The notes: generated by a model from the letters alone, not told the origin. Positions 3,550 to 33,442 are shown, numbered from the stretch's first letter. The stretch: 34,055 bases of DNA from Minisyncoccota bacterium (GCA_020052135.1 JAGVPS010000028.1:1-34055), one strand, 5' to 3'. A program made the numbers and translations.

Positions 3550-4233
3550 ATGTCTACTATGGGGAAAATAGATAAATGGATTTTGTGGATTGGCGGTATA
3601 GCGATCGCCATATTTTTTCTGATAGCGCTCTCTGTGCGAAGCAACGCCCCGCTATCGGAAGAACAGGCAACTACAACGCCTCCTCTCGAGGAAGACGTTG
3701 AAGTGGATGAAGAAATAAGCGGTGAAACTGAAGGAACTACAGTGGTCTTCCCGCCGTATATAGGTGATCCGATCGAGAACATCGGAAACGATTCTTTTAT
3801 AGCCCAAGTGCCTCCTGCCTCTCTCTTAGCATACAAAACCGAACTTGCTGAGCTCAAAGCTTCGCTTTCTAAAAAGCCAGGCAATTTTGATGGCTGGCTC
3901 CGACTCGGTGTTATTAAAAAATTCTTTAACAATTATACAGGTGCGCGCGATGCATGGGAATACGCGAACATAATCGCACCAAAAAACTCAAGTGCCTACT
4001 ACAATCTTGGCGGACTCTACGGTGCCTATCTTAAAGATTTTAAGAAAGCAGAGGAGCGTTACCTCACTGCAATAGAAAATGACCCCAAGTTTTCATATTT
4101 GTATGTAGACTTTGCCAATTTTTATTGGACTTTTGATATATCGAAAAAGCATCTGGCAAAAGGCGTGATTGAAAAGGGGCTCGTAGCACTCCCCGATGAC
4201 CCCTCCCTTCTCCAGGCGCTTGAGCGGTATTAA
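3550..4233 (+). CDS. Membrane-anchored TPR-repeat protein
   Basis: N-terminal TM (WILWIGGIAIAIFFLIALSV), an acidic linker, then TPR-like helices (GWLRLGVIKKFFNNYTGARDAWEYANIIAPKNSSAYYNLGGLYGAYLKDFKKAEERYLTAIENDP). Confidence 0.75.
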   Translation: MSTMGKIDKWILWIGGIAIAIFFLIALSVRSNAPLSEEQATTTPPLEEDVEVDEEISGETEGTTVVFPPYIGDPIENIGNDSFIAQVPPASLLAYKTELAELKASLSKKPGNFDGWLRLGVIKKFFNNYTGARDAWEYANIIAPKNSSAYYNLGGLYGAYLKDFKKAEERYLTAIENDPKFSYLYVDFANFYWTFDISKKHLAKGVIEKGLVALPDDPSLLQALERY

Positions 4234-4245
4234 CGAGGACATACA

Positions 4246-7442: not shown

Positions 7443-8635
7443 CAAGACGCGCGGTACAATGCTTCGGTTTTCTGTATCATCAAGGAAAGGCTAAACTCTG
7501 TTTGCAAGCGATGCCGGGCTTCTTTTCCAAAGATTTGAGCTCTATAGTGATCTCGCATGAGTTCTTGAAAAGCCCGGGAAAGGCGTTCGGGGTTTTTTTG
7601 AGGAACTACCATGCCCGTTGCGTCGTGCATGACGACTTCAGGCATTCCGCCCGCGTCAGTAACGACTGCTGGGATTCCCGCGGCACAGGATTCAAGAAGC
7701 GCATAGGGCAGGCCTTCTTTTACAGAGGTGAGCGTAAAAAGGTCGAATGCTTTCAGAAATTTTGCATCATCTCCAGTAGGAGGTATCAGAAAAAACCTAT
7801 CTTGTAATTGCCCGCCTGCCGGCGAGGCAGGGTAATTGGTAATTAGTAATTGGAGTTTTGAGTATTCCGGTCCTGCGCCAATGATAAAGAAATACGCATT
7901 TGGAACGAGCGCCGCTGCTTGAATGAGAGTGGCGTAATCTTTTTCTTTGGTTAGTCGGCCGATGGAGCCGATCCAGGGTTTAGCAACTAGTAATTGCCCG
8001 CCTGCCGGCGAGGCAGGGTAATTAGTAATTGGTAATTTTGAAATAATTGCCTTTCGCGCGGAAACCTTATCCAGGAAAGTAAGGTTTTGATAATCAATCC
8101 CATTGTGGATGGTGGTTAACTTTTTAGAAGGCGCTATGGCATAGCGGAGCGCAAGTTTGTAGTCGTATTCTGATACGCAAATAATGTAGTTCTGAAAATA
8201 CGCAGCCATACGATGAAGGCGTATATAAACAAAACGGGCAACAGGAGAAAGTGCGTTTGATGGATTAAAAACCCAGCCATGGGCGGTGAAGATTACTTTT
8301 GCAGGTAAATGGTAAATGGTAAATGGTAAATGATTGTAAAGAAATGCGGCAAACGAGCCGATTACTCCTGCCTTAGAGCTGTTCAGGTGGATAATATCCG
8401 GGTGCTCTTTTCGATATACGCTCATGAGTGAAAAAAGCGCTCTCCAGTCATTTGCGAAGAGCGCGTACCAGGCGATTTTATTTGAAAGCGAGGGAATATC
8501 AACGCCTCCCCGTATGACGCGAATGTCAAAAGAGGCGCGGTCAAGATGTGAGGCGAGATCTGCTACATACTTTTGAGCGCCTCCTACGTCATCTTTGGTG
8601 ATGACATAGAGCACCTTTTTACGTTGCTCATCCAT
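7439..8635 (-). CDS. GT4-family (GT-B fold) glycosyltransferase carrying three in-frame repeat insertions
   Basis: N-terminal VLYVITKDDVGGAQKY and C-terminal EGLPYALLESCAAGIPAVVTDAGGMPEVV (E-x7-E region) are GT4 hallmarks. The stop overlaps the convergent 5805-7442 gene by 4 nt. Confidence 0.85.
   Translation of the reverse strand: MDEQRKKVLYVITKDDVGGAQKYVADLASHLDRASFDIRVIRGGVDIPSLSNKIAWYALFANDWRALFSLMSVYRKEHPDIIHLNSSKAGVIGSFAAFLYNHLPFTIYHLPAKVIFTAHGWVFNPSNALSPVARFVYIRLHRMAAYFQNYIICVSEYDYKLALRYAIAPSKKLTTIHNGIDYQNLTFLDKVSARKAIISKLPITNYPASPAGGQLLVAKPWIGSIGRLTKEKDYATLIQAAALVPNAYFFIIGAGPEYSKLQLLITNYPASPAGGQLQDRFFLIPPTGDDAKFLKAFDLFTLTSVKEGLPYALLESCAAGIPAVVTDAGGMPEVVMHDATGMVVPQKNPERLSRAFQELMRDHYRAQIFGKEARHRLQTEFSLSLMIQKTEALYRASC
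7804..7853 (-). repeat. Hairpin-plus-heptamer cassette, copy 1 (in frame, encodes ..LLITNYPASPAGGQLQ..)
   Basis: The plus strand reads GTAATTG-CCCGCCTGCCGGCGAGGCAGG-GTAATTG-GTAATTA-GTAATTG-G. It is an imperfect GC palindrome flanked by GTAATTN heptamers. Confidence 0.9.
7990..8037 (-). repeat. Hairpin-plus-heptamer cassette, copy 2 (in frame, encodes ..LPITNYPASPAGGQLL..)
   Basis: The plus strand reads GTAATTG-CCCGCCTGCCGGCGAGGCAGG-GTAATTA-GTAATTG-GTAATTT. It is a direct repeat of copy 1, exactly 186 nt away. Confidence 0.9.
8304..8331 (-). repeat. Perfect tandem heptamer (GGTAAAT)x4 inside the GT4 coding sequence
   Basis: Four uninterrupted units at 8304-8310, 8311-8317, 8318-8324 and 8325-8331. 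They encode HLPFTIYHLP on the minus strand. Confidence 0.95.
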
Positions 8636-8672: not shown

Positions 8673-10955
8673 ATGGAACGAGAAAGTAATCCCATTGCAG
8701 TCTTTTCATTGGCATACCAGCCATTTGTGGGTGGCGCGGAAATAGCAATCCACGAAATCATACAGCGAATGCCGAAAGAGCAGTTCGTTTGTTTTACGCG
8801 TCGATTTGATGCGTCGTGGCCGAAAAGAGAAACCGAGGGAAATGAGACGATTGTGCGCCTTGGGCGTCCCGCGAGAGAGTATTATGGCCATGCGCTCTTA
8901 AAACTTTTCTATGTATTTCTTGCCTATCGTGCGGCGACGCGGATGCATCGGGAAGAGCCTTTTAAGGCAATCTGGGCGATCATGGCTTCGTATGGCGGCA
9001 TGGCAGCGCTTCTTTTTAAACTTCGGCATCCAAAGATCCCGCTCTTGCTTACGCTCCAAGAAGGTGATTCTGAAACGCATATCTTGAAGCGCGTGGGTAT
9101 TTTCTATCCGATATGGCGACTCATTTTTTTGCGCGCAGATCGCATACAAGTCATTAGCAGCTTCCTTAAAAGTTTCGCCGAGCGACAAGGAGCAATATGC
9201 CCGATAACCGTTATTCCAAACGGCGTTGATTTAAGTAAATTCAAACCAGAAATGGCGGTTGGAAGATTGCTTCATAAAATGTTTACCATTATTACAACAT
9301 CGAGACTTGTCCGGAAAAATGGAATCGATATTCTTGTGAAAGCGATAGTAGTGCTGAAGAAAGAGGGGAAAAAAGTAAGACTTCTTATTATAGGTGGTGG
9401 ACCCGAAGAAGAAGCACTCAAGATACTTGTAAAAGAGCTCGACGTTCAAAACGAAGTAGAGTTTATCGGACAAGTTGCGTCAGATGCAATTCCAGGATAT
9501 TTAAAAAAAACAGCTGACGTTGTGTTTGTTAGACCTTCTCGATCTGAGGGGCTGGGGAGTTCTTTTCTTGAAGCTATGGCAGCAGGAATTCCTATTATTG
9601 GTACTCCTGTTGGAGGTATCTCAGATTTTCTTTTTGATCGAGAAACTGGGCTTTTTGTTCGAGAAGAAGATCCAATTGATCTAGCAAAAAAGATTAGAGA
9701 GCTCATAGATGATTCCCAACTCTGGGATCGTCTTCGAAAAAAAGGTCTCAACCTTATCCAGCGGTATTCATGGGATCAAATCGCCGAAGAGATAGAAGGG
9801 ATATTTCTAGATCTCAAAGTGATCAAGCGCGTAGTTATTGCGACCGGCATCTTCCCCCCGGATATCGGCGGTTCGGCAAGCTATGCCGCAGTGCTCACCG
9901 AGAAATTGCCTGCCTATGGTTGCGCGCCTCTTGTGGTTACCTATGGAAAAGCGCGCCCATCGAAAATCATCTCCGTATCGCGCGGGCTTCCGAAGCCACT
10001 ACGGCATGGGCTCTTTTTTCTGAAAGTGTATATGAGCGCATTGCATGCGGATGTGGTGCTTTCTGCCGATGCTTCGTTTGGCGCAGGCTTTTTTGCGATG
10101 CTCGCCGCGCGTGCGGCGGGAGTACGCGCACTTGTTCGAGTCACGGGAGACTATGCCTGGGAGCAGGGATTGCAGAGATTCAATGTGCGCGATCTCATCG
10201 ATGGATTCCAAAAAAAGCGATATGGATTTTTTGTGGAAGCGTTGCGCTTCTTTCAAAAGGCAACGCTTCGCCTTGCGGATCAGGTGATCGTGCCAAGCGC
10301 ATATCTTGGTGCGCTCGCACGCGGGTGGGGCATCAGGGAGAAAAAAATACAGATTATCTATAATGCTGTCGAGCCGCCCCCTCCGCTTTCGTATGAAAAG
10401 GCGAGACACGCGCTTGGCATAACGGGAGATGTCATTGTTTCTGCTGGAAGACTGGTTCCGTGGAAGGGATTTGAGATGCTTATTCGCTCCCTTCCGGAAA
10501 TCAAAAAAGATTTTCCCCGGCTTACTGTTTTCATCGTTGGTGACGGACCCGAGTGCGCCCATTTAGAAAAGCTGTCGAAAAGCCTCGGAGTTAGCGGCAC
10601 AGTCCGCTTTCTTGGTATCCTGTCGAAGGATATGCTACAGGTTTATCTGCAAGCGGCAGATCTTTTTGTGTTGAATACTTCGTACGAGGGATTTTCCCAT
10701 CAATTGATAGAAGCCATGCTCGTGGGTATTCCCGTCCTCTCTACGGAAGTAGGGGGCAACAGGGAACTGGCTGAACTTGGGAAAAATATCACGCTCATAC
10801 CTTATAACGACGCGGAGGCATTCCAGAAAAATATAGTAGCCCTGCTTAACAGCAAGGCGGAAAAACCTCGGCATTATATAGATAGAAGCCTTGCTGACCG
10901 GGTTTCCGTGTCGAGAATGATACAGGAGCTTGTACGCCTCATGCGTCCTTTATGA
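8673..10955 (+). CDS. Fused double GT4 glycosyltransferase (two complete GT-B modules)
   Basis: There are two E-x7-E regions: SEGLGSSFLEAMAAGIPIIGTPVGGISDF and YEGFSHQLIEAMLVGIPVLSTEVGGNREL. The second module starts at KRVVIATGIFPPDIGGSASY (about nt 9824). Confidence 0.85.
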   Translation: MERESNPIAVFSLAYQPFVGGAEIAIHEIIQRMPKEQFVCFTRRFDASWPKRETEGNETIVRLGRPAREYYGHALLKLFYVFLAYRAATRMHREEPFKAIWAIMASYGGMAALLFKLRHPKIPLLLTLQEGDSETHILKRVGIFYPIWRLIFLRADRIQVISSFLKSFAERQGAICPITVIPNGVDLSKFKPEMAVGRLLHKMFTIITTSRLVRKNGIDILVKAIVVLKKEGKKVRLLIIGGGPEEEALKILVKELDVQNEVEFIGQVASDAIPGYLKKTADVVFVRPSRSEGLGSSFLEAMAAGIPIIGTPVGGISDFLFDRETGLFVREEDPIDLAKKIRELIDDSQLWDRLRKKGLNLIQRYSWDQIAEEIEGIFLDLKVIKRVVIATGIFPPDIGGSASYAAVLTEKLPAYGCAPLVVTYGKARPSKIISVSRGLPKPLRHGLFFLKVYMSALHADVVLSADASFGAGFFAMLAARAAGVRALVRVTGDYAWEQGLQRFNVRDLIDGFQKKRYGFFVEALRFFQKATLRLADQVIVPSAYLGALARGWGIREKKIQIIYNAVEPPPPLSYEKARHALGITGDVIVSAGRLVPWKGFEMLIRSLPEIKKDFPRLTVFIVGDGPECAHLEKLSKSLGVSGTVRFLGILSKDMLQVYLQAADLFVLNTSYEGFSHQLIEAMLVGIPVLSTEVGGNRELAELGKNITLIPYNDAEAFQKNIVALLNSKAEKPRHYIDRSLADRVSVSRMIQELVRLMRPL

Positions 10956-12061
10956 AAATCCTTATGATTTCAACCGATGCGCGCATATGCGATGCAGAGT
11001 CTTCAGTCGCTCGGCGCATGCAGGAATACGGCAATCTCTGCGATGAGTTACACATTGTTGTTTTTTGTAAAAAAAATGTGATATATCCTCGACCAGAACG
11101 AATTCGTATTGAAAAACAGACGTGGGTATATCCTACGTGGTCTCGTTACAAGTGGTGTTTTATATGGGATGGGTTAAAAACCGCCAAAACTATTTTGAAT
11201 AAAGAAGAAGCATGGGTCATTACCACTCAAGATCCGTTCGAATCAGGAGTCGTGGGATTCTTGCTTGTGCGGAACTTTCCCGAGGCTCGACTTCAAGTAC
11301 AAGCACACACTGATTTTTTAAGCCCCTTCTTTCGTGCAGAGTCTCTTAAAAATAGATTTCGTGGCACACTCGCCCGTTTTTCTATACGACGTGCCGATAG
11401 TATTCGGGTAGTGAGCGAACGAATTAAACAATCAATCATAATAAAGTACGGCGTGCCAAGCTCACAGATTGTGACGTTGCCTATTTTCGTAGACGTGAAA
11501 AAAATAAGAGAAGTGCCGCCCACACTCGACCTTCGAAAAAAATATGCGGGGAAAAGCCCCATCTTTCTCATAGCGTCGCGCCTTACCAAAGAAAAGAATA
11601 TTCCGCTTGCCCTTCGGGCGTTCCGGGAGGTGTGTTTAGCGAATCCAAACGCGTTACTCGTGATTGTGGGGGAGGGACCAGAGAAGTCAAAAATCCAATT
11701 ACTGATTACCCGCTACCAATTACAGAAGAATGTAATTCTTGAGCCATGGACGGACGATCTTTCATCCCACTATAAAACAGCAGATTGTTTTTTGCTCACC
11801 TCAAACTATGAGGGGTATGGCAGAACCATCGTTGAGGCGCTTGCCGCGGGCTGTCCGGTTATATCAAGCGACGTAGGTGTCGCGCGTGAGGCCATAACTC
11901 CTGAAAGCGGAAGCATATTCACGGTGGGGAATAGCCACGCGCTTGCACTGCTCCTTAAAGAGGTTATGCAAGGAAAGAAGTTTCAGCCAACCCTCCCCAA
12001 AAAATTTGATATATCAAAAGAGGAATACCTACAGCAGTGGCAACGCATGATGAGCAAATAG
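10952..12061 (+). CDS. GT4-family glycosyltransferase
   Basis: ATGA overlap with the upstream gene. LIASRLTKEKN, VGEGPE and YEGYGRTIVEALAAGCPVISSDVGVAREAI are GT4 C-terminal domain motifs. Confidence 0.85.
   Translation: MKILMISTDARICDAESSVARRMQEYGNLCDELHIVVFCKKNVIYPRPERIRIEKQTWVYPTWSRYKWCFIWDGLKTAKTILNKEEAWVITTQDPFESGVVGFLLVRNFPEARLQVQAHTDFLSPFFRAESLKNRFRGTLARFSIRRADSIRVVSERIKQSIIIKYGVPSSQIVTLPIFVDVKKIREVPPTLDLRKKYAGKSPIFLIASRLTKEKNIPLALRAFREVCLANPNALLVIVGEGPEKSKIQLLITRYQLQKNVILEPWTDDLSSHYKTADCFLLTSNYEGYGRTIVEALAAGCPVISSDVGVAREAITPESGSIFTVGNSHALALLLKEVMQGKKFQPTLPKKFDISKEEYLQQWQRMMSK
11696..11723 (+). repeat. Four-unit heptamer tract (CAATTAC TGATTAC CCGCTAC CAATTAC) at the position homologous to the cassette, without the GC hairpin
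   Basis: Period-7 xxxTTAC/xxxCTAC units read directly from the sequence. They encode QLLITRYQLQ. Confidence 0.7.
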
Positions 12062-12112
12062 GTTGTAAAACACGGACTTGCCATGAGAGAATGAGCCGTA
12101 CCTGAAACTCTT

Positions 12113-12820
12113 ATGAAAACCTACAAGAAAATTTCGATCGTCATCCCGGCGTACAACGAAAAAAATACGATTGAGGAGATTATTCGCCGCGTAAAAGCCG
12201 CAGATGTGTTGGGTTTAGAAAAAGAGATTATCGTTGTAGACGATGGCTCAAAGGACGGCACGCGGGATATGCTAAAAGCCATTCCCGGCATCAGGTATAT
12301 TTTTCATGAAAAGAACAAGGGAAAAGGGGGGGCGGTAAAGACGGGCATTGCCTCTGCCACGGGCGACATCATCATCTTTCAAGATGCCGATCTTGAATAT
12401 GACCCAAATGATTATGCCGCGATGATTAGCCCTATTATCGAGGGTGGAACATTGGTCACAAACAGCGTGCGCATCAAGCCGGAGCGAGATGGTCGCCGTA
12501 GAAAATCCCTCTATTGGATAAGCTGGGCGGCGAACGGAGCCATCACGCTTCTCACGAACGTTTTATATTTTCATTGGAGCGGGGAATACGAGGGATGTTA
12601 TAAGGCATTTGACGCAGAAGTTTTAAAGAGTGTCGAGGTAAAAACAAACAATTTTGATTTTGATAACGAGCTCGTGTGCAAGCTCCTGAAGCGCGGTTAC
12701 AAGATCGTTGATGTTCCTATACGCTACTATCCACGGAACTATGAAGAAGGAAAGAAAATAAACTGGAAACACGGTTTTTTGATTTTGTGGACGATCGCGA
12801 AATACAGGTTTGTAAAATGA
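12113..12820 (+). CDS. GT2-family glycosyltransferase, small DPM1/Ppm1-like (polyprenyl-phosphate sugar synthase type)
   Basis: SIVIPAYNEKNTIEEII, VVDDGSKDGT and FQDADLEYDP (DxD) are present. At about 235 aa it lacks C-terminal TM helices. It is a paralog of 25783-26472. Confidence 0.85.
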   Translation: MKTYKKISIVIPAYNEKNTIEEIIRRVKAADVLGLEKEIIVVDDGSKDGTRDMLKAIPGIRYIFHEKNKGKGGAVKTGIASATGDIIIFQDADLEYDPNDYAAMISPIIEGGTLVTNSVRIKPERDGRRRKSLYWISWAANGAITLLTNVLYFHWSGEYEGCYKAFDAEVLKSVEVKTNNFDFDNELVCKLLKRGYKIVDVPIRYYPRNYEEGKKINWKHGFLILWTIAKYRFVK

Positions 12821-12880
12821 AACTCCCCGTGCTCACGCCCGTGGTATCTAAGTTTCACCCCGCCATCGGCGGGGTTTATT
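12818..12880 (+). terminator. Double-hairpin terminator module, copy L (begins with the TGA stop of the GT2 gene)
   Basis: Outer stem is TGAAACT (12818-12824) / AGTTTCA (12851-12857), enclosing an inner hairpin with a TCAC loop. Then comes CCCCGCC-ATC-GGCGGGG (12858-12874) followed by TTTATT. It matches the reverse complement of 17116-17175 at 52 of 60 positions. Confidence 0.75.
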
Positions 12881-12939
12881 AAATCCCTCACCGCTTTCAT
12901 ACCCGTGCTCACGCACAGGGTATTCAGCGGGGATTTAAT
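12878..12939. other. Long imperfect hairpin in the convergent intergenic region
   Basis: ATTAAATCCC..CCGC..ACCCGTGC-TCAC-GCACAGGGT..GCGG..GGATTTAAT. The inner stem-loop resembles the inner hairpin of the terminator module. It may terminate the minus-strand 12986-13681 gene. Confidence 0.4.
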
Positions 12940-12985
12940 AAAAAAATACCCCCAGAGCCTCGCGCGAGGTTGAAGGTGATTGCGG

Positions 12986-13681
12986 TCAGTAGTACACGAC
13001 CGCGTAAGCCGAAATCGCAGATACTCCCCACTGCCTGTGGTTGAATTCCGATTGGGGAGTTAGTACGTACTCTCCGGCATTGATGTGAAGAGGATCTCGT
13101 GACATTGAGAAAAACCTGAGAGAACCCTCAAACACCATCACGAGTTGATGTTGCCACTGGTCGAGACAGCGTGGACCGCCAAGCACAAGGCCTGGATTGG
13201 ATCCAGGAACGTGCTGAGCTGGATGGTGGGAGTGATACTCGTAACCCTCGCCCCAGCCGAAACTCCGAGGTTGTTGGGAGACGAAGCGGCAGATGGTAGT
13301 GCTCCATGCCTCCTCAGAGCTCGCTGGCAGAAACCAAGTGCGTGGTTCGTTTGCAGGAAGCTCAATCCCTGCTCCTTCCTCGAGGAGCGCGATGTCGTCA
13401 TCATGTTCGCACGCGAAAAGGCCGTGGAGCACTTGTACTGCCTCGAGTCGTCCTCCGTGGGCTGGGAGTGGCGGTTGCCATCCTGGGTAGCCATCCCGCT
13501 GTACGTACTTCTGAGAGCGCGCCTCACGACCCGCCTTCCAAAGCTTCACCATGAGACCGTGCGGATCGTCCTTTGCGACGAAGCGGGGATCATCGGGCGC
13601 AAACTGGTTGCCAATGAGCCACTCGCCGTCCGGATGTTCTACCGTGCCTTGCCAGAGGCCGGGTCCAATACTTCGGAACAA
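12986..13681 (-). CDS. Hypothetical protein, possibly bicupin-like
   Basis: TTG start 7 nt after GGAGG (13693-13689), with its own promoter. Two halves have cupin-like strand patterns (GEWLIGNQF...GLMVKLWKAG...LEAVQVLHGLF and HQLVMVFEGSLRF...INAGEYVLTP). The family assignment is weak. Confidence 0.6.
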   Translation of the reverse strand: MFRSIGPGLWQGTVEHPDGEWLIGNQFAPDDPRFVAKDDPHGLMVKLWKAGREARSQKYVQRDGYPGWQPPLPAHGGRLEAVQVLHGLFACEHDDDIALLEEGAGIELPANEPRTWFLPASSEEAWSTTICRFVSQQPRSFGWGEGYEYHSHHPAQHVPGSNPGLVLGGPRCLDQWQHQLVMVFEGSLRFFSMSRDPLHINAGEYVLTPQSEFNHRQWGVSAISAYAVVYY

Positions 13682-13721
13682 GAGTATTCCTCCGGTAAGG
13701 GGAAAGTGATCGCGAGATTAT

Positions 13722-13749
13722 ATAATATATCGTTTTGAAATCTTGTCAA
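13722..13749 (-). promoter_or_regulatory. Sigma70-type promoter for the 12986-13681 gene (TTGACA-16-TATTAT)
   Basis: The reverse complement of 13744-13749 is TTGACA. The reverse complement of 13722-13727 is TATTAT. The spacer is 16 nt. Confidence 0.6.
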
Positions 13750-13773
13750 CTAGCTAGCGGCAAATAGTTGACA
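13744..13773. promoter_or_regulatory. 9-bp inverted repeat TGTCAACTA / TAGTTGACA spanning both divergent -35 boxes (possible operator)
   Basis: The arms are 13744-13752 and 13765-13773. The 12-nt spacer contains the palindrome GCTAGC. Confidence 0.5.
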
Positions 13774-13796
13774 TATTTTTCTAGAAAATGTATTAT
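13768..13796 (+). promoter_or_regulatory. Sigma70-type promoter for the first DUF218 gene (TTGACA-17-TATTAT)
   Basis: TTGACA at 13768-13773, a 17-nt spacer, then TATTAT at 13791-13796. Confidence 0.6.
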
Positions 13797-13871
13797 AGCT
13801 TTCAGCTAGGTTACCCGAACGATCACTTTTTATAGGGAGGTAATAGCATTTCCACTGCTGAATCCGATCAA

Positions 13872-14486
13872 TTGGCCGAACTGCTCGTTCGCGTGTTGTG
13901 CGATGAACATCGGGAAGACTCGGAAGTGGTGTACGCAGTCACGGAAACGGGCGACAACGAGGACTCTATCTTTCGAACCGCTGCTCGAATCCACCGTACC
14001 CACCGTGTTCCGGTAGCCGTGAGCGATGCTACCACGGCGACGGGGTATCCGGGCTTCATCAAATGGGCCGGAAAGCTGCGCTCCCATTACCGGGTATCCG
14101 AGATCATCTGCATACGTCCGCCTGCCGGAGGAGCTCTGAACACCAACACGGAATTTCTGGAGTTCGTGTTGGTTGCGCGGGAAGAGGGGTGGCGCGCGGT
14201 GACAATTGTGGCTTCGCCGTTTCATCAACCCCGCTCATTCATCAATGCTGTAACAGCCGCAATCCGTATCTACCCCGATCTTTGCATCTACGGAGCTGTT
14301 GGGGTGGCACAGAACTGGCTCGAAGACGTGCGTTACTCTCAAGGCATTCACATGGGAGCACGCGCACGGCTTGTGCATGCGGAGATGGATCGCATCCGGA
14401 GATACACGACCCAGGGAGACCTTCTTCCCGCCTCTGAGATTCTCGACTACCTGAACGCCCGGGACGCACGCGTCCATTCATCATGA
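13872..14486 (+). CDS. DUF218/YdcF-like (SanA/ElyC family) protein, paralog 1
   Basis: ALNTNTEFLEF....AVTIVASPFHQPRSF matches the DUF218 pattern (NT.eN ... lVTs.fHm.RA). It is clearly paralogous to 16332-17012. The TTG at 13872 comes from the ORF track, but an ATT at 13848 sits 7 nt after GGGAGG and may be the real start. Confidence 0.75.
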   Translation: MAELLVRVLCDEHREDSEVVYAVTETGDNEDSIFRTAARIHRTHRVPVAVSDATTATGYPGFIKWAGKLRSHYRVSEIICIRPPAGGALNTNTEFLEFVLVAREEGWRAVTIVASPFHQPRSFINAVTAAIRIYPDLCIYGAVGVAQNWLEDVRYSQGIHMGARARLVHAEMDRIRRYTTQGDLLPASEILDYLNARDARVHSS

Positions 14487-14487
14487 C

Positions 14488-14527
14488 CCGCAGATAAGCA
14501 ATCGGTTTGCTGTCTGCGGTTTTTTTT
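14488..14527 (+). terminator. Rho-independent terminator
   Basis: CCGCAGA-ta-AGCAA-tcggt-TTGCT-g-TCTGCGG followed by T8 (14520-14527). Confidence 0.85.
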
Positions 14528-14545
14528 GCTAAAAATATAAAAAAA

Positions 14546-14580
14546 GAACCCTTGACGATATCGCCGTAGCGATTGGGTTC
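14546..14580 (-). terminator. Rho-independent terminator of the ClpP-like gene
   Basis: GAACCC (14546-14551) pairs with GGGTTC (14575-14580), with an inner ATCGC/GCGAT pairing. On the minus strand the hairpin is followed by TTTTTTTATATTTTT. Confidence 0.6.
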
Positions 14581-14598
14581 TAACGGGTAGAGTTATAC

Positions 14599-15165
14599 CT
14601 ACTCCTCCTCATCTGCTGGAAGGTACTCATCCTCGGGCACGATCTCGTGAATGATGCCGTAGTGGAGGGCTTCTCGGGCGGAAAGCGTTGCCTTGCTCCT
14701 CATGAAGTTCAAAAGGGTAGCAGTAGGGATTCCCGTCTGCTCCTTCATAAAGGAGAGAAACCAGCCTTGAGCGGCTCTCATGCGACGGAGCCACTCCTCG
14801 ATCACTTCTCGCTTTTCGGCCATGACTTCATCCTCGAAGTACCGCCTCACCATTTCGACGTCGCAGATGGTGACTGCGTGTCCGTTGATGAGTGTCCTAA
14901 CTTCATGAAAGAAGAAGGTTGCGCTTGGGAAGGCTCGTCGGCTACGACCCAAGAGGAAAAGGATGATCGCGGCCGAATAGACATCCCCGGCGAGCGTAAT
15001 GATTCCACGACGCTCGATACTGGGAGCCCGAGAGGAGAAGAAGTCGAATCTACCCCCTGGCGAACTCACATACACGCATTGAGGAGCATCGGGTCGCTGT
15101 AGCGAGAGCAAAAGGCCATCGACCGTCTCTTCGCTGATCTTTTCTTCAAAGCATAGGTATTTCAC
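14599..15165 (-). CDS. ClpP/peptidase-S14-like protein lacking the N-terminal axial region
   Basis: GTG start 6 nt after AGGAG. VYVSSPGG (compare INSPGG), GDVYSAA (compare GQAASMG, Ser retained), FFFHEV (compare MIHQP, His retained) and LSAREALHYGIIHEI (compare LSAPEAVEYGLVDSI). Confidence 0.7.
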   Translation of the reverse strand: MKYLCFEEKISEETVDGLLLSLQRPDAPQCVYVSSPGGRFDFFSSRAPSIERRGIITLAGDVYSAAIILFLLGRSRRAFPSATFFFHEVRTLINGHAVTICDVEMVRRYFEDEVMAEKREVIEEWLRRMRAAQGWFLSFMKEQTGIPTATLLNFMRSKATLSAREALHYGIIHEIVPEDEYLPADEEE

Positions 15166-15201
15166 TAAAAACTCCTGGGTTGGGTTGGAGTGCCGAAGCT
15201 A

Positions 15202-15230
15202 TTTATAATCTGATTTATAAAAATAGTCAA
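15202..15230 (-). promoter_or_regulatory. Sigma70-type promoter for the ClpP-like gene (TTGACT-17-TATAAA)
   Basis: The reverse complement of 15225-15230 is TTGACT. The reverse complement of 15202-15207 is TATAAA. The spacer is 17 nt. Confidence 0.55.
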
Positions 15231-15414
15231 GGATTTCTGGACAAAAAAGTGATGATATGACATTCTATATTCAGTTCAACGGCCCGACTCTCACCCCGAG
15301 AAAGATGCACACTTTTTTGTTCATGGTTTTCTCAAAAGTATGCGCCGAAATTTTCGGATTCAAAAGGGAATCTAGGTAAAAAGTTCCACCATAAACTCAC
15401 AGCCAGAAGGTTTT

Positions 15415-16230
15415 ATGAAAACAACCGTGTTTGATCCAGGGGCGAAAGATGGAAGGGTGAGTATGGCTATGAAGGGAGTGGCGTACGAGGCTGGGCGATT
15501 ACTCCGCTCGATGCAGAGCACTGGCCTCGATCGTGACATGAAGGGATCTCACGATTTTTCGACTGCGGCCGACCTTGCGTCTCAACGATTAATTCGAGAG
15601 AAACTCTCCAGTGTTTTTCCTGACGTGGCAATCGTGGCAGAAGAGGACGATGAACATGTGCTCAAACAGACGTGCTTCATCGTCGATCCGCTCGATGCGA
15701 CGTACAACTACAGCGTTGGAGGTTCTGATTGGGGCGTTGTTATCGGCCTCCTTACCTACGGGAATCCGGTGCGCGCGGTGCTCTACCAGCCGAACGCAGA
15801 CCTCATCGTCGAGGTAGCTCAAGGAGGGGGCGTTTTAATGAACGGAGTGCCGTGCGTGCCTCCGCTCGAACGTCCGCTCAAAGAGTCTATCATCGGCACT
15901 GAGATCGTGTGGTCTAACCCCGAGGGGTTTATCGACCACGTAATAAAGCCACTTCAGAAGCAATGTCTTGGTTTGGTGTGTCCGCTTTCGGCAAGCGCTG
16001 GAGTTGTGAAGTTGCTTCGGGGTGAGATTGCCGCCTACGTTAACCTTACGCATGGCAAGGTGTGGGACTTCGTGGTCCACGCGCTCGCCATGGAGGAATG
16101 GGGAGGCGTCGCTCTTGCTCCCAATGGCATGCCGCTTCAGTGGGATAGTCTCCCGATGCGCGGAGTGTTCTCGCCGCACCAGAAGCTTGCCGAGGCGCTC
16201 CTTACGCTCACCCGAAGGGTGGAACAGTAA
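15415..16230 (+). CDS. Inositol monophosphatase / CysQ / FBPase-family phosphatase
   Basis: IVAEEDDE (metal-binding EE), FIVDPLDATYNY (a DPxD[GA]T motif) and KVWDFVVHA (the WD motif region). ATG preceded by GAAGG. Confidence 0.85.
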   Translation: MKTTVFDPGAKDGRVSMAMKGVAYEAGRLLRSMQSTGLDRDMKGSHDFSTAADLASQRLIREKLSSVFPDVAIVAEEDDEHVLKQTCFIVDPLDATYNYSVGGSDWGVVIGLLTYGNPVRAVLYQPNADLIVEVAQGGGVLMNGVPCVPPLERPLKESIIGTEIVWSNPEGFIDHVIKPLQKQCLGLVCPLSASAGVVKLLRGEIAAYVNLTHGKVWDFVVHALAMEEWGGVALAPNGMPLQWDSLPMRGVFSPHQKLAEALLTLTRRVEQ

Positions 16231-16241
16231 CCATCCTTTAT

Positions 16242-16266
16242 CCCTCGCACGCGGGGGAATTTTTTT
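16242..16266 (+). terminator. Candidate rho-independent terminator
   Basis: CCCTC-gcacgc-GGGGG (one G-T pair), then AA and T7. The T-tract overlaps the next promoter. Confidence 0.45.
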
Positions 16267-16293
16267 GACAAAAAATCTGTCTACTTGTACCAT
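16265..16293 (+). promoter_or_regulatory. Candidate promoter for the second DUF218 gene (TTGACA-17-TACCAT)
   Basis: TTGACA at 16265-16270, a 17-nt spacer, then TACCAT at 16288-16293. Confidence 0.4.
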
Positions 16294-16331
16294 CTTTTGA
16301 GTACTACATCTCTAGGGAGATATGACAAGCA

Positions 16332-17012
16332 ATGACTGATACGTTCGAATCAACTCTTGGAGCATTCACGAGACGCGTCCTTTCGGACCTGCCTCCCGCT
16401 CGTCCGTTCGACTATCTCCTCCTCGTGGGGCAAACCGCTGACAACGAGCGGTCGGTCCTCAATCGCGCGGCTCGCTACTCACGCGACAATCGCGGCGGAC
16501 AGTGGATGAATCCGCATCTCCTCATCGTTGATGGGCCGACAGGCTTTGGCTTCCCTGGTTTTCCTCGGTGGGAGGCGAACCTGCGACAGCAGGGTGTTAA
16601 TCCGGAGAATATCGTGCGGGTCTCGTATTCGAATCCCGAACGGGGCATCAATACGAATACCGAGATGCAGGCGTTTCTCGACTACCTGTTGCGCGAGGTT
16701 GCTCCAGATGGCGCTATGCGGCTTGGCATCATTGCGGCGCCATTTCACCAGCCACGCGCGTTCGTGAATTTCGTGAGCGTGGCGCTCATGAGTGGCACAG
16801 ACTCTCGCATGATTGACGCCTTCAGCGTACCCGGTGATCCGTTGCCCATGGATGAAGTTGTCGCTCATTCGCAGGGCATAACCCGAGGCATGCGTGCAGA
16901 TCTTGTACGCACTGAAGCTGAACGGATTCGGGCGTACACGGCGAAGGGCGATTTGCTCCCCATTCCTGAAATCATCGCCTACATGGACGAGAGAGATGCT
17001 CGGAACCGGTAA
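16332..17012 (+). CDS. DUF218/YdcF-like protein, paralog 2
   Basis: GINTNTEMQAFLDY...LGIIAAPFHQPRAF. It shares the C-terminal RIRAYTAKGDLLPIPEIIAYMDERDAR block with paralog 1. Confidence 0.8.
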   Translation: MTDTFESTLGAFTRRVLSDLPPARPFDYLLLVGQTADNERSVLNRAARYSRDNRGGQWMNPHLLIVDGPTGFGFPGFPRWEANLRQQGVNPENIVRVSYSNPERGINTNTEMQAFLDYLLREVAPDGAMRLGIIAAPFHQPRAFVNFVSVALMSGTDSRMIDAFSVPGDPLPMDEVVAHSQGITRGMRADLVRTEAERIRAYTAKGDLLPIPEIIAYMDERDARNR

Positions 17013-17014
17013 CT

Positions 17015-17058
17015 CCGCGAGATCGGCATATGCGTATGCAGAGACTCGCGGTTTTTTT
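17015..17058 (+). terminator. Rho-independent terminator
   Basis: CCGCGAG (17015-17021) pairs with CTCGCGG (17045-17051), followed by T7. Confidence 0.7.
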
Positions 17059-17112
17059 ATATGCGCAATCTAGAGAATTCTCTGGCCGTTTCAGATTAGG
17101 GGTAAAGCGCAT

Positions 17113-17175
17113 ATAAAACCCCGCCGTTGGCGGGGTGAAGCTTAGATACCACGGCCGTGAGGCCGTAGAGCTTCA
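17113..17175 (-). terminator. Double-hairpin terminator module, copy R (begins with the TGA stop of the oxidoreductase gene)
   Basis: The minus strand reads TGAAGCT-ct-ACGGCC-TCAC-GGCCGT-ggtatcta-AGCTTCA-CCCCGCC-AAC-GGCGGGG-TTTTAT. It has the same architecture as 12818-12880. Confidence 0.75.
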
Positions 17176-18099
17176 TAAAGATTTTGAAATAGTTTCAAGA
17201 TGTGCAGTTACGGTAGCGCCAAACGCAACATCGGTGAGCGGAGAGAGACGATTCTCAATGCAGGCGCGAAAATGCTCCAACTCGTTTTTGAGCGGTTCCG
17301 TAGTAAACGAAGGAATGGCGATGGGTGTTGGAGAGGCAATCGTAAGCGTATTCGGGACAACTCCTGTATCGAGTATAATTTTTGTTGTGTCTCCCAGACA
17401 CACGAATTTCCTTACTTTTTCTGGACCGAGCCAGGAAGTGGTGATCGTGAGAAGCGGTCCGTGATCAAACGCAACGGTCGCCGAAACAAAGTCCTCGTGA
17501 GAACCATTTTGTATACGAAATTTTTTTCCTGAAACGCTTCTAATTTTCCCCGGATTAAACAGATAGTTAAAAACAGAAAGCGGATGCGGCGCCGCGTCCC
17601 AAAAACAATTGATGTCTGTGCGTGGAGGGCTTACCAAGTGTTCGCTCATGACATGGGTGATTGTGCCGAGGCGTCCCGCGTCAAGTTCAGTTTTTAAAAA
17701 TCGTATCGCATCATTATAGATGTATTGGTACCCAACCATGCATATTTTTCCCGATCGGGATGCTGTACGAGCAAGGAGTCGCGCTTCCTTCGTACTCATC
17801 ACCATTGGTTTTTCAACGAGCACATGTTTGCCCGCGCGGAGCGCGGCATGCGCAAGCGCAAAGTGGGTGTGCGCCGGGGTCGCGATAATAACCGCATCAA
17901 TGTCCGGAGACGCGAAAACTTCGCTAGGGTTTAGGGTATAGCGAATAGGAGAAGAGATAAGACTTTTCAGTTCTGGATGTTCACGAGTGGTTACGACTGA
18001 AAGGAGGGCGAACCCCTCGAGCGATTGCAAGAGTCGGAGATAGTTTTTTCCAAAGTTACCAACACCAAAAAGTGCGCACCTAAGCAGTGGTTGGCTCAT
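17173..18099 (-). CDS. Gfo/Idh/MocA-family NAD(P)-dependent oxidoreductase (likely sugar-nucleotide reductase/dehydrogenase)
   Basis: N-terminal FGVGNFGKNY Rossmann motif and the VLVEKPM (EKP) motif. Confidence 0.85.
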   Translation of the reverse strand: MSQPLLRCALFGVGNFGKNYLRLLQSLEGFALLSVVTTREHPELKSLISSPIRYTLNPSEVFASPDIDAVIIATPAHTHFALAHAALRAGKHVLVEKPMVMSTKEARLLARTASRSGKICMVGYQYIYNDAIRFLKTELDAGRLGTITHVMSEHLVSPPRTDINCFWDAAPHPLSVFNYLFNPGKIRSVSGKKFRIQNGSHEDFVSATVAFDHGPLLTITTSWLGPEKVRKFVCLGDTTKIILDTGVVPNTLTIASPTPIAIPSFTTEPLKNELEHFRACIENRLSPLTDVAFGATVTAHLETISKSL

Positions 18100-19168
18100 T
18101 ATGTGCGGGCTCAGTCTTAAGTATGGAGCGATACCACGTGAGCGTTCGCGTAAGGCCGGTTTTCAAATTCACCGATGGTTTAAAACCCAGCTCTTTTTGG
18201 ATTTTTGTAATGTCGGGGCAACGTCGCTGTGGTTCGCCTGCCGGATATGATGCCGGATAAGCAATCAGCTCTACGGTTGGTTTTTGGGTTACGAGAGAGC
18301 TCACGAGATTCCCTAAGCTCACCATATTAATTTCTTCATTGGGGCGCCCTACGTTATATATTTCCCCGTTTTTCTCTGACGCAAGCACTTTTAGAAATCC
18401 CTGGATAGCATCGGTAATGTAGCAAAATGTCCGTGTTTGATTCCCTTTGTCATGCACCGGCAAGGCCTCGCCCTTCAAGGCTTTGACCATAAAGGTTGGA
18501 ATTACTCGGTAGTCATGCACCTTCATACCGGGCCCGTAGACATTGAACGGCCGGACAATTTTAACCGGTATGCGGTAGAGCTGGTGATAGGTCATGCAGA
18601 GCGTTTCTCCGAGGCGTTTTGACTCGTCATAGCAGGCGCGCGGTCCCACCGCGGAAACATTGCCCCAGTATCCTTCGGGTGTCGGGATATAATTAGGGTT
18701 CGGGTCGCCGTAGACTTCGCTCGAACTGAAATAGAGCATGCTTTTTACCTTTTTGCTCTTTGCAAACTCTAAAAAGTTTTTAGTGCCGTTCACTGCAACC
18801 TCAATGGTTTCCAAGGGGAATTTCCGGTAATAAAAAGGAGAGGCGAGCCCGGCGGCGTGGATAAGGTAGTCGGCCTTCAATTTGTGCGGGAGCTGATTCC
18901 GCACATCATGGGTCATGAGCGTGAAGTGCGGATCAGTGTTGTCAATAATGCTATTTTCTTCAGCGCTCGTGATGTAGTTATCCATGACGATAACCTTGCA
19001 CGGCTTTTTCAAAACCTTTTTATTGAGCTCAAGAAACGTTGCAACAAAATAACTGCCCAAGAAGCCACAGCCGCCGGAAATGAGAATGGTTTTTCCTTCG
19101 AATGTTTTTGCTTCTGTTCGTATCGATCGGATAATGGATTGTATGTCTTCGTGGACGAGTTTGTTCAT
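18080..19168 (-). CDS. Extended SDR NAD-dependent epimerase/dehydratase, UDP-glucuronate decarboxylase (UXS)-like
   Basis: ILISGGCGFLGSYF and ACYDESKRLGETLCMTY (YxxxK in a UXS-like context). ATGA overlap with the upstream methyltransferase gene. Confidence 0.8.
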   Translation of the reverse strand: MNKLVHEDIQSIIRSIRTEAKTFEGKTILISGGCGFLGSYFVATFLELNKKVLKKPCKVIVMDNYITSAEENSIIDNTDPHFTLMTHDVRNQLPHKLKADYLIHAAGLASPFYYRKFPLETIEVAVNGTKNFLEFAKSKKVKSMLYFSSSEVYGDPNPNYIPTPEGYWGNVSAVGPRACYDESKRLGETLCMTYHQLYRIPVKIVRPFNVYGPGMKVHDYRVIPTFMVKALKGEALPVHDKGNQTRTFCYITDAIQGFLKVLASEKNGEIYNVGRPNEEINMVSLGNLVSSLVTQKPTVELIAYPASYPAGEPQRRCPDITKIQKELGFKPSVNLKTGLTRTLTWYRSILKTEPAHNEPTTA

Positions 19169-20439
19169 ACGAGTTTGGGTTCGGGTACGGGAATAATAAA
19201 CTTTCCGCCATTGGCTTTAAATGAGGAAAGTTTTTTCATAATAGGATCCGCAAAGTTCCATGCAAGGATTAGGATATAGTCAGGATTTTTCTCGGCAAGC
19301 TTTGCGGAGGAGAAAACCGGGATATGGGTACCCGGCATATATAAGCCCTGTTTCCAATGACTATCGTCAACAATATACTCAAGCGTTTCAGGACCGATGC
19401 CAAAATGGGTGAGCAGTGTTGTGCCTTTTGCGGGAGCTCCGTAGCCCGCGACGAACTTCTTCTTTTTTTTGAGATATCTTAGGAGTTCGGTAAGCGCTAC
19501 TTTGTTCTTTAGAATCTTATGCGAAAAGTTCTGATACGTCAAAGATTCATGGAGCTTATGTTCCATTTCTTCTTTTAGGAATTTTTGTATATGAGAGCGT
19601 TGTAGCGCGTGGGGACCATTACGAAGCTCAGCAAAAATTCGAAGCGATCCTCCATGCGTATCTGTTTTCTCTACATCAAATACCTCCATATCGAGCCGTT
19701 CAAAAAGCCGGATAGCCGTTCGTACGGAGAAGTAGGAAAGGTGTTCGTGATAAATAGTATCAAACAAATTTTTTGATATGAGATCTCCGAGGTAATATGC
19801 CTCAACCATAAAAACACCGTCTTTTTTAAGAAGGATGCGGACTCCTTCCACAATTTCATCAAGGTTGTCGATGTGGGGGAACGCGCTCGTCGCTGTTATG
19901 AGCGCCGCAGACCCGTGTTTTTCTAAAATCTTTTTAGCAAGTGCGGGGGTAAAGAATTCAGGAATTGTTTCCACGCCGTTTGCCGTTGCTTCGCGCGCGA
20001 TTTTCTCCGCGGGGTCGATGCCCAAGACGCGGAACCCTAATTTTTTAAATGGCTTAAGGAGTATGCCGTCGTTACTGCCAATATCCACGATAAGTGAATT
20101 TTCAATGAATGAAAACCGCCGGGAAATAGTCTTTGCCAACTCTTCAAAATGTGTGACAAATACTGGAGAAGTGGAGGATACATACACATAGTCCCTAAAT
20201 AAGAGTTCGGGTGACACAATGTCGCGGAGCTGCACAAAACTGCACTGCGTACAAAAATCGAGATCAAGAGGAAAAAAAGGCTCTGGTTGTAAGAGATCTG
20301 CTTTAGTAAGAAATGCGTTTGCGGGAGGAGTTGGCGCAAGCGAAAGTACAGGAATAAGGGCTTTTCCTTTGCACGCTCTGCACTCGAATCTTGGTTTAGA
20401 TAAATGGGACTCGGACAGTGTCTTCTTCATATGCTCCAT
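19165..20439 (-). CDS. NDP-hexose C-methyltransferase (TylCIII/NovU-type, zinc-ribbon + SAM MTase + C-terminal domain)
   Basis: FECRACKG...FCTQCSFVQL zinc ribbon, then LIVDIGSNDG SAM motif, then a long C-terminal domain. The start is uncertain: TTG 20466, ATG 20439 or ATG 20430. Confidence 0.75.
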   Translation of the reverse strand: MEHMKKTLSESHLSKPRFECRACKGKALIPVLSLAPTPPANAFLTKADLLQPEPFFPLDLDFCTQCSFVQLRDIVSPELLFRDYVYVSSTSPVFVTHFEELAKTISRRFSFIENSLIVDIGSNDGILLKPFKKLGFRVLGIDPAEKIAREATANGVETIPEFFTPALAKKILEKHGSAALITATSAFPHIDNLDEIVEGVRILLKKDGVFMVEAYYLGDLISKNLFDTIYHEHLSYFSVRTAIRLFERLDMEVFDVEKTDTHGGSLRIFAELRNGPHALQRSHIQKFLKEEMEHKLHESLTYQNFSHKILKNKVALTELLRYLKKKKKFVAGYGAPAKGTTLLTHFGIGPETLEYIVDDSHWKQGLYMPGTHIPVFSSAKLAEKNPDYILILAWNFADPIMKKLSSFKANGGKFIIPVPEPKLV

Positions 20440-20782
20440 CTTTACGGGATTTAGTGGCGAGCACAATCCACGTAGTGTCCTCTAAAAATTTCATGGCATG
20501 GACACGGAGCGGTGGCGAAAACACCATATCGCCGGTTTCAAGAACAGCGCTTTCTTTTTTACTGTTATCTTCGTCAATACCTTTTTCAAAATACTCCATT
20601 TTTCCAGCGACCATATAGCAATAATGCGAATCCTCCTTATGATAGTGGTTTGCGCGTACCGAACCTTTCTTTGAGGTGATAATAAGCACGCTCTTAATCA
20701 CGGTTATGCCATCATCAAAAAGCATGGTGATGTTGCCTCGTTCTTCAGCTACTTCCGGTTTGATGTTGCGGTATATTTTCAT
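20396..20782 (-). CDS. Cupin-fold sugar-nucleotide epimerase/isomerase-like protein
   Basis: GSVRANHYHKEDSHYCYMVAGKMEY...GDMVFSPPLRVHAM is a cupin pattern seen in WxcM/FdtA/CapF-C-like proteins. I chose the internal ATG (MKIYRN), but the ORF is open to 20818. Confidence 0.65.
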   Translation of the reverse strand: MKIYRNIKPEVAEERGNITMLFDDGITVIKSVLIITSKKGSVRANHYHKEDSHYCYMVAGKMEYFEKGIDEDNSKKESAVLETGDMVFSPPLRVHAMKFLEDTTWIVLATKSRKDGAYEEDTVRVPFI

Positions 20783-32693: not shown

Positions 32694-32705
32694 ATTTTAC
32701 CTATT

Positions 32706-32751
32706 AGAAAATCACGTCAATTGAACGATCGTCCAATTGACGTGATTTTCT
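32706..32751. terminator. Perfect 18-bp-stem hairpin between convergent genes (bidirectional terminator candidate)
   Basis: AGAAAATCACGTCAATTG (32706-32723) pairs with CAATTGACGTGATTTTCT (32734-32751). The 10-nt loop AACGATCGTC is itself partly palindromic. Confidence 0.75.
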
Positions 32752-32759
32752 ATGTTTTC

Positions 32760-33437: not shown

Positions 33438-33442
33438 ATCGC

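Follow-up and report, generated by a model that had tools for sequence, protein, structure and literature searches.

The stretch of DNA considered here is an entire 34-kb metagenomic contig (JAGVPS010000028.1, 34,055 nucleotides) from a Minisyncoccota bacterium; it is analysed at its full length, called the window below, and almost all of it is a glycan locus. Within it, two sugar-pathway operons of three genes each converge on a central block of five separately transcribed genes, and each operon ends in a copy of the same element of about 60 nt, the two copies facing each other in inverted orientation at the edges of the block. This raises the question as to whether the pair marks the ends of a foreign insertion, or whether each copy is a 3'-end signal belonging to the operon that it closes. 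The reading tentatively preferred here is that of a lineage-restricted 3'-end module of a REP- or SPRITE-like kind, in which a one-directional terminator and a protective hairpin containing the stop codon would together close both operons.

Two copies of one module at convergent operon ends

The two operons, their last genes and the two copies of the module are located as follows.

8673-12820, plus strand: operon 1, closed by copy A, encoding a double GT4 (760 aa), a GT4 (369 aa) and a GT2 (235 aa)
12113-12820, plus strand: GT2 gene, the last of operon 1
12817-12880, plus strand: module copy A, with the GT2 stop codon TGA (12818-12820) within its outer stem, a UCAC-loop inner hairpin containing two mismatches, a GC hairpin at 12857-12875 and the tail UUUAUU; 92.9 bits
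17113-17176, minus strand: module copy B, with the oxidoreductase stop codon TGA (17175-17173) within its outer stem, a UCAC-loop inner hairpin of 8 bp without mismatches, a GC hairpin at 17136-17118 and the tail UUUUAU; 96.1 bits
17173-18099, minus strand: Gfo/Idh/MocA oxidoreductase gene, the last of operon 2
17173-20466, minus strand: operon 2, closed by copy B, encoding a sugar C-methyltransferase (433 aa), an NAD-dependent epimerase/dehydratase (362 aa) and a Gfo/Idh/MocA oxidoreductase (308 aa)

A repeat search of the window returns an inverted pair of 61 nt, 12817-12877 (+) and 17176-17116 (-), that is 87% complementary. The ungapped alignment of the two copies has eight differences (columns 6, 10, 11, 14, 15, 22, 37 and 50), in agreement with the identity of 52 of 60 positions over 12818-12877 given by the original prediction, a description of this locus made from the bare sequence; the gene coordinates likewise bear out its statement that the first three bases of the two copies are the TGA stops of the GT2 and the Gfo/Idh/MocA genes. 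It had further placed the onset of similarity exactly at the stop codon; the similarity begins one base earlier, with a shared A, while the coding sequence upstream is, as claimed, unrelated between the copies.

The match between the copies is far beyond chance. The core 17-mer of the module has two exact occurrences in the window, against an expectation of 0.13 even with three mismatches allowed, and a covariance model built from the pair scores copy B at 96 bits and copy A at 93 bits; its next-best match in the window, at 17.8 bits, covers the GC hairpin on the opposite strand only. Copies A and B are also the sole terminator-like structures at the ends of the operons 8673-12820 and 20466-17173. 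The longest exact run that they share is 14 nt. An assembly artefact or chimera was ruled out: the longest exact repeat, at this same length, is too short for contig joining, and the adjacency of the genes recurs in independent contigs. An exact-protein look-up of the GT2 and the oxidoreductase that flank the copies returned no record.

Fold of the module and its predicted role

Each copy folds into two successive stem-loops. The first, 40 nt long, has an outer stem of 6-7 bp, with the stop codon of both copies in its 5' arm, (U)GAARCU, and an inner stem of 8 bp; UCAC forms the loop of the inner stem, and UAUCUA is unpaired on its 3' side. That the module itself supplies the stop codon, as had been proposed, is confirmed by this position of the TGA within the outer stem. 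Found at two convergent junctions and overlapping the gene by the three nucleotides of the stop codon, this first stem-loop falls within the 20-40 nt of a REP-type palindrome. Directly 3' of it stands a GC hairpin, ACCCCGCC-AUC/AAC-GGCGGGGU, with seven G-C pairs, one A-U pair and a 3-nt loop; its energy of -15.4 and -14.0 kcal/mol in the two copies goes with a stem of the kind expected for intrinsic terminators (about 5-14 bp, GC-rich, with a short loop). The tails that follow, UUUAUU in copy A and UUUUAU in copy B, consist of three or four U residues and then an AU-rich stretch. Read on the other strand, the GC hairpin has UGAAAC after it, so that the hairpin would terminate only the incoming operon. 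The fold stability of the two copies corresponds to z = -4.4 and -6.0.

Seven of the eight differences between the copies lie within stems, and the unpaired UCAC loop and GUAUCUAAG are identical in both. Two pairs of differences are compensatory, A-U against G-C at columns 6 and 37 and G-C against C-G at columns 15 and 22; in a simulation with eight random substitutions, at least two compensatory pairs arose with P ~0.006. A column-shuffle control gave 97/500, a figure drawn from two sequences only and hence uninformative.

Taken as parts of a working element, both copies would descend from one palindromic 3'-end module of about 60 nt, each full copy closing one of the two sugar-pathway operons, which have three genes each and converge. 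In the transcript, the GC hairpin and its short U-tract would bring about Rho-independent termination in one direction, and the stem-loop upstream of the terminator, with the stop codon embedded in it, may serve as a 3' protective or stabilising hairpin, possibly one that binds a protein. Together, the two copies would insulate the operons from the central slot of five genes. They would be members of a small, lineage-restricted family of REP/BIME- or SPRITE-type hairpin repeats; compensatory change would maintain its stems, and its members would exchange sequence with one another.

The same architecture, in which a hairpin, a terminator and a U-tail follow one another, is common to many small RNAs derived from 3' untranslated regions (3'-UTRs), which brings in a regulatory alternative: that the copies are sibling small RNAs cut from 3'-UTRs, or a shared 3'-UTR protein site, that co-ordinate the two sugar-pathway operons. 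The identity of the unpaired segments and the confinement of nearly all differences to stems would suit it, as would the fact that both host operons share a gene neighbourhood in relatives. It is nonetheless judged improbable. The window has no Rfam match at gathering thresholds, and the best sub-threshold match in a permissive search, anti-hemB, reaches 20.8 bits where the cutoff is 49.5 and owes this score to the terminator hairpin. None of the related loci has conserved the module; the complement of the loop is not enriched at gene starts, where a 9-mer scan gave 10 matches for an expected 4.8 and the two copies account for two of the 10; and the first hairpin of copy A is decaying.

An attenuator was considered separately and ruled out, as the anti-terminator pairing that can be drawn in copy A (with CCCCG) is not conserved in copy B.

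A third, decayed copy and the layout of the two junctions

The segments that lie between each copy and the nearest gene of the central block contain four further features.

12878-12946, plus strand: decayed third copy of the module, in direct orientation and directly after copy A; 11.3 bits with the model built from the pair
12940-12985, minus strand: own terminator of the cupin-like gene, a hairpin around CCTCGCGCGAGG (12958-12969), then T7 (12946-12940)
17013-17058, plus strand: own terminator of the alpha/beta gene 16332-17012, CCGCGAGA...TCTCGCGG, then T7 (17052-17058)
17055-17118, minus strand: long hairpin after copy B, with 12-bp arms TTTTATATGCGC / GCGCATATAAAA, placed as is the hairpin after copy A

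The core of the third copy is ACCCGUGC-UCAC-GCAC(A)GGGU, which forms the inner hairpin and has UAU after it; beyond this core, TCAGCGGGGATT resembles the 3' arm of the GC hairpin, and the whole is about 18 nt short of the full module. The UCAC loop and the GGUAU that follows are kept. Set against the inner stem of copy B, that of the third copy differs by four compensatory pairs and one G.U change, and not a single pair is broken. The third copy is the best evidence in this genome that points to a small family of hairpins under structural constraint.

It also bears on the history of copy A. The inner 5' arm and loop of copy A equal the third copy over 13 nt (seven of the eight positions of the 5' arm), and its inner 3' arm equals copy B over 14 nt (again seven of eight positions of the arm). 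The inner stem of copy A thus looks like a chimera of copy B and the third copy, formed by exchange between members of the family, and such an exchange would explain the two mismatches of copy A.

The layout of the junctions is alike at both ends of the block: the module is followed by a hairpin of 60-65 nt that pairs the U-tract of the module with an A-run. After copy A this hairpin is a 13-bp AT-rich stem (12875-12887/12930-12942) that encloses the third copy. Its counterpart after copy B, 17055-17118, has no sequence similarity to the module and no match to the covariance model. At both ends, the A-run is the other strand of the T-run in the own terminator of the gene at that end of the block.

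A variable accessory slot between the GT2 and the oxidoreductase

The original prediction had regarded everything between the two copies, about 4.2 kb, as functionally foreign to the locus. The block in question (12986-17012, genes on both strands) consists of five separately transcribed genes, each with its own hairpin and T7-T8 terminator, and with near-consensus promoter-like sites upstream of several of them.

12986-13681, minus strand: cupin-like gene
13872-14486, plus strand: first alpha/beta paralogue
14599-15165, minus strand: ClpP-like gene
15415-16230, plus strand: inositol-monophosphatase family gene
16332-17012, plus strand: second alpha/beta paralogue

The junction was compared with the corresponding loci of relatives, taken as contigs with homologues of the oxidoreductase. 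In four of them (L094-L097, from Hainich groundwater and Logan assemblies), the orthologue of the oxidoreductase (48% identity) and a convergent GT2 (72%) overlap by 23 nt; in two others (L099 and L100), the oxidoreductase (46%) and the GT2 (75%) are 2 nt apart. Neither the block nor the module lies between the two genes in any of these six loci. The expectation that the GT2 and oxidoreductase genes would be found directly convergent where the island is absent is therefore realised in two related lineages, which are distant ones, at 72-75% (GT2) and 46-48% (oxidoreductase) amino-acid identity.

Elsewhere the junction is occupied, and by members of the same families as in the window. In L092 and L093, a homologue of the cupin-like protein (41% identity) is encoded 81 nt downstream of the oxidoreductase orthologue by a gene with its own promoter, TTGACA-17-TATTAT; in L092 the gene lies at 4789-5460, and the hexamers are those of the window. 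In L098, one alpha/beta homologue (3733-4380, 36% identity) converges on the oxidoreductase across a single bidirectional hairpin, and L101 has three alpha/beta paralogues (4820-7256, 27-39%) convergent to the oxidoreductase behind a bidirectional terminator. As in the window, the genes in the slot are GC-richer than their neighbours in L092 and L098. The description of the whole block as functionally foreign does not survive this comparison: by homology, at least three of the five block genes are members of families found repeatedly next to this sugar cassette. The space between the two convergent genes is therefore to be seen as an accessory slot of the pathway with variable occupancy, some lineages having nothing there and others different genes, and not as a site of foreign cargo.

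A further contig, L009 (GCA_964357575.1), encodes the nearest relative of the oxidoreductase (57% identity), upstream of which synteny is conserved; this contig ends 6 nt past the stop codon (4066-4072). A break at this point is what a repeat or a strain-variable junction would be expected to cause; the contig itself is uninformative on the matter.

The relatives also speak to the origin of the stop codons. The GT2 ends at the same residue in the window, in L094-L097 and in L099/L100, and the oxidoreductase of the window is two residues shorter than its orthologues in the relatives. Part of what the original prediction had named as evidence against itself is found here, in that relatives lacking the element have the same gene ends, exactly for the GT2 and to within two residues for the oxidoreductase. 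The module would then have replaced a native stop at its native position, and it appears to be lineage-specific and not a conserved feature of these genes.

These gene ends decide against a reading of the element as a recoding signal, in which the hairpin after the UGA would direct the insertion of selenocysteine or read-through into a C-terminal extension. A stem-loop does begin at the UGA, and the frames past both TGA codons stay open, for 50 codons after the GT2 (12818-12970, plus strand) and for 66 codons after the oxidoreductase (17175-16975, minus strand). Recoding is, however, exceedingly improbable: the UGAs lie at the orthologous C-termini, TGA ends 10 of 29 genes here, and the extensions would run across the terminator and the terminators of the convergent genes and are unrelated to each other beyond the 20 codons that they share. 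No SECIS family is found in Rfam even at E values up to 10. Given stops at orthologous C-termini, the open frames past both TGA codons are probably due to chance. An alternative genetic code was likewise ruled out, the TGA codons that end these 10 genes being at natural positions.

The position of the pair raises a more serious alternative, that the copies are the terminal inverted repeats of a mobile cassette lacking a transposase (MIC-like, or two flanking MITE-like units) which delivered the five-gene block; ends made of a stop codon and an inward-facing terminator would keep both host genes intact. The 61-nt inverted repeats, 87% identical, lie exactly at the boundaries of the block, and the abutting orthologous genes of L094-L097 and L099/L100 would represent its 'empty sites'. 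The block has a GC content of 0.54-0.58 and a GC content at third codon positions of 0.59-0.63, while the glycan genes on either side have 0.43-0.51; GC is likewise higher over the initial 3.5 kb of the contig. The ends of the pair read 5'-TG...CA-3' with AAA flanking both sides, and both MICs and segments mobilised by pairs of MITEs are known (PMC3913671, PMC4133298). The window contains no transposase or recombinase, however, the copies differ by 13%, and the AAA flanks are not significant in their A-rich context. When removal of the block is reconstructed with a 3-bp duplication, the oxidoreductase acquires a long, unnatural C-terminal extension. L092, L098 and L101 hold subsets of the block gene families at the junction without such repeats, so that the slot seems to have been filled piecemeal, and a decayed third copy lies inside the supposed element. 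A cassette of this kind is accordingly considered unlikely, though it is the likeliest of the competing readings.

How the inverted pair arose can be pictured in three ways: by independent spread of the repeat, by the splitting of a face-to-face doublet through a later insertion, or as the terminal repeats of a cassette without transposase. In the second, a palindromic doublet of terminators between an abutting GT2 and oxidoreductase may have served as a landing pad for the gain and loss of accessory genes of the pathway; in the third, a cassette with a stop codon and an inward terminator at each end may have entered overlapping convergent gene ends with damage to neither gene. The claim that the pair is either a split doublet acting as landing pad or the ends of such a cassette is, taken jointly, regarded as doubtful.

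A pair of 61-nt inverted repeats bounding a discrete segment could also be recombination sites at which the 4.2-kb block is flipped, by homologous or site-specific recombination, and both flanking genes would stay intact through such an inversion because the repeats include both stop codons. This is very unlikely. No invertase or recombinase gene lies nearby; a flip would have no obvious effect, since the block genes have their own promoters and terminators; and with 13% divergence and a longest identical run of 14 nt, the copies would make a poor substrate for homologous recombination.

Further copies and points weighing on the proposed 3'-end module

A lineage-restricted 3'-end module, the reading preferred above, has to be set against a number of observations that weigh on it. 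The first concern its predicted activity. The original prediction had called the second hairpin and its T-tract a classical intrinsic terminator; a one-directional terminator is plausible, but the U-tracts are short, and a simple terminator scan (at least five T in eight bases) is passed by copy B alone. It had also taken the compensatory pairs as a sign of selection on RNA structure. Both pairs are real and unlikely to arise at random, but two other differences leave copy A with mismatched pairs (C.U and U.C), so that its first hairpin is weak (-10.6 against -21.1 kcal/mol in copy B); the folding energy is moreover about equal on both strands, so that structure at the level of RNA and at the level of single-stranded DNA cannot be told apart. 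The exact coincidence of the inverted pair with the block boundaries is, in addition, what the terminal repeats of an inserted cassette would give.

The second group concerns copy number. Two full copies and one decayed copy are present in the whole 34 kb, where the covariance model finds no further full copy in the rest of the window. Pattern scans gave no match in genome_contigs (with GTGGTATCTAAGNTTCACCCC), five chance matches in metagenome_contigs (with GTGGTATCTAAGNTTCACC), all without flanking similarity, and one chance match in viral_contigs (with GGTATCTAAGNTTCACC); blastn against plasmids and phages returned nothing relevant to the module. The covariance model had no match in the related loci, nor in a negative control of 1.28 Mb from other genomes, made up of genome_contigs from the oxidoreductase alignment scan (relatives of at most 36% identity among the matches listed).

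The third concerns the hallmarks of REP elements. GTAG is not conserved, CTAC/GTAG standing at the stem base of copy B only, where copy A has CCCC and the third copy ATAC; and no gene resembling a RAYT or Y1 transposase lies in the window, although a RAYT may be present elsewhere in the genome. Judged by the GTAG and RAYT hallmarks within the window, membership of the module in the REP family is not established.

Comparison with described systems

The module is comparable in several respects with the REP, BIME and REPIN elements of proteobacteria. These, too, are GC-rich, imperfectly palindromic stretches of 20-40 nt located where operons end or converge, and compensatory change preserves their stems. 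They combine the roles of terminator and mRNA stabiliser, occur as inverted units and are possible hot spots of insertion (PMC1525189), and it has been reported that REPs can serve both as terminators and as stabilisers (bioRxiv 10.64898/2026.03.23.713779). By comparison, the module has neither a conserved GTAG nor a RAYT in the window, its inverted copies are 4.2 kb apart and not adjacent, and its palindrome is joined to a canonical GC hairpin and U-tract. REPs number tens to hundreds per genome, against the two full copies and one decayed copy on this 34-kb contig.

In its mode of working at convergent junctions the module is likened to SPRITE (2011, summarised in PMC3184786); SPRITE is about 105 nt long and present in many copies in a Gram-positive pathogen, and no sequence relation is expected. 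The module differs in the few copies visible here and in starting at a stop codon. With MIRU (mycobacterial interspersed repetitive units) it shares repeat ends that overlap the ends of adjacent genes and contribute a stop codon (PMC3184786); MIRUs, in contrast, are tandem units of 40-100 bp within polycistronic operons, with small open reading frames and not terminator hairpins.

MICs and segments mobilised by a pair of MITEs (TIMEs) resemble the locus as a whole, having passenger genes without a transposase between inverted repeats and empty sites in relatives (PMC3913671, PMC4133298). The pair in the window matches no known insertion-sequence end and has no convincing target duplication, its repeats consist of a hairpin and a terminator, and the families of its passenger genes are also present at this junction in other lineages, where repeats of this kind are missing.

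If multi-copy, the module would be a first family of small repeats to be described from a groundwater lineage that is poorly sampled, and a clean example of a stop codon, a protective hairpin and a terminator combined in one unit. The closest named relatives of the glycan genes come from Patescibacteria and other uncultured groups. Repeats resembling an AATTAC heptamer had hinted at a cyanobacterial origin, which was rejected since a single HIP1 site is found.

Genes of the central block

The more useful lead is the recurrence of the cupin-like and alpha/beta families beside a sugar cassette of C-methyltransferase, epimerase and oxidoreductase. This adjacency makes both proteins candidates for steps of that pathway, and the cupin-like protein may act on the same sugar as the oxidoreductase, its homologue in L092 being encoded directly downstream of the oxidoreductase orthologue. 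The cupin-like family is rare, with 30 cluster representatives among 1.84 billion proteins; Cupin_2 is detected weakly in 4 of 24 family members, and a PDB profile search matches bicupins at E ~0.008. The two alpha/beta genes of the block are paralogues (38% identity) from a very rare family with three homologues among 5.8 billion clusters. A Pfam DUF218 match of the alpha/beta paralogue stays below the cutoff, and its AlphaFold model (pLDDT 82) has no significant neighbour in the PDB, the best at E 0.012 and TM 0.35.

The cupin-like gene and the first alpha/beta gene are separated by back-to-back promoter-like sites (13722-13796), TTGACA-16/17-TATTAT, with 11 of 12 matches each, that diverge toward the two genes. 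The match of the ClpP-like protein (14599-15165) to the Pfam Clp protease profile is confined to roughly the final 45 profile positions, and its score with the NCBIfam ClpP models is 32 bits against a cutoff of 228; the protein may be a divergent or non-proteolytic protein of the Clp fold.

Two other interpretations of the block were tried and rejected. It is not a defence island (no PADLOC match), and integron attC sites were ruled out, there being no core or inverse-core sites, no integrase, and units of several genes.

Other convergent junctions and repeats on the contig

Another pair of convergent genes on the contig, 28201-29529 and 29526-30539, overlaps by 4 nt and has no terminator; the two-hairpin module is consequently not a general ending for convergent genes here.

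A second hairpin-forming repeat lies inside genes. GT4 genes contain three in-frame occurrences of a unit some 48 nt long, AATTACCAATTAC(C/T)AATTACCCTGCCTCGCCGGCAGGCGGGCAATTAC, two of them in one gene; the unit encodes ...ITNY-PASPAGG-QL.

7801-7851 and 7987-8037: 48-nt GT4 unit, in the gene 7439-8635 (minus strand)
27763-27810: 48-nt GT4 unit, in the gene 27045-28178 (plus strand)

The GT4 paralogue at 10952-12061 has the equivalent site (11669-11717) without the 21-nt GC hairpin. The unit looks like a palindromic insertion in frame, reminiscent of the Rickettsia palindromic elements, and the spreading of this GT4 hairpin repeat on the same contig is counted in support of a hairpin family.

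Finally, the convergent genes 31285-32595 (+) and 32760-33461 (-) have between them a near-perfect palindrome of 48 nt (32705-32752), whose 24-nt arms are 96% complementary and adjoin without a spacer.

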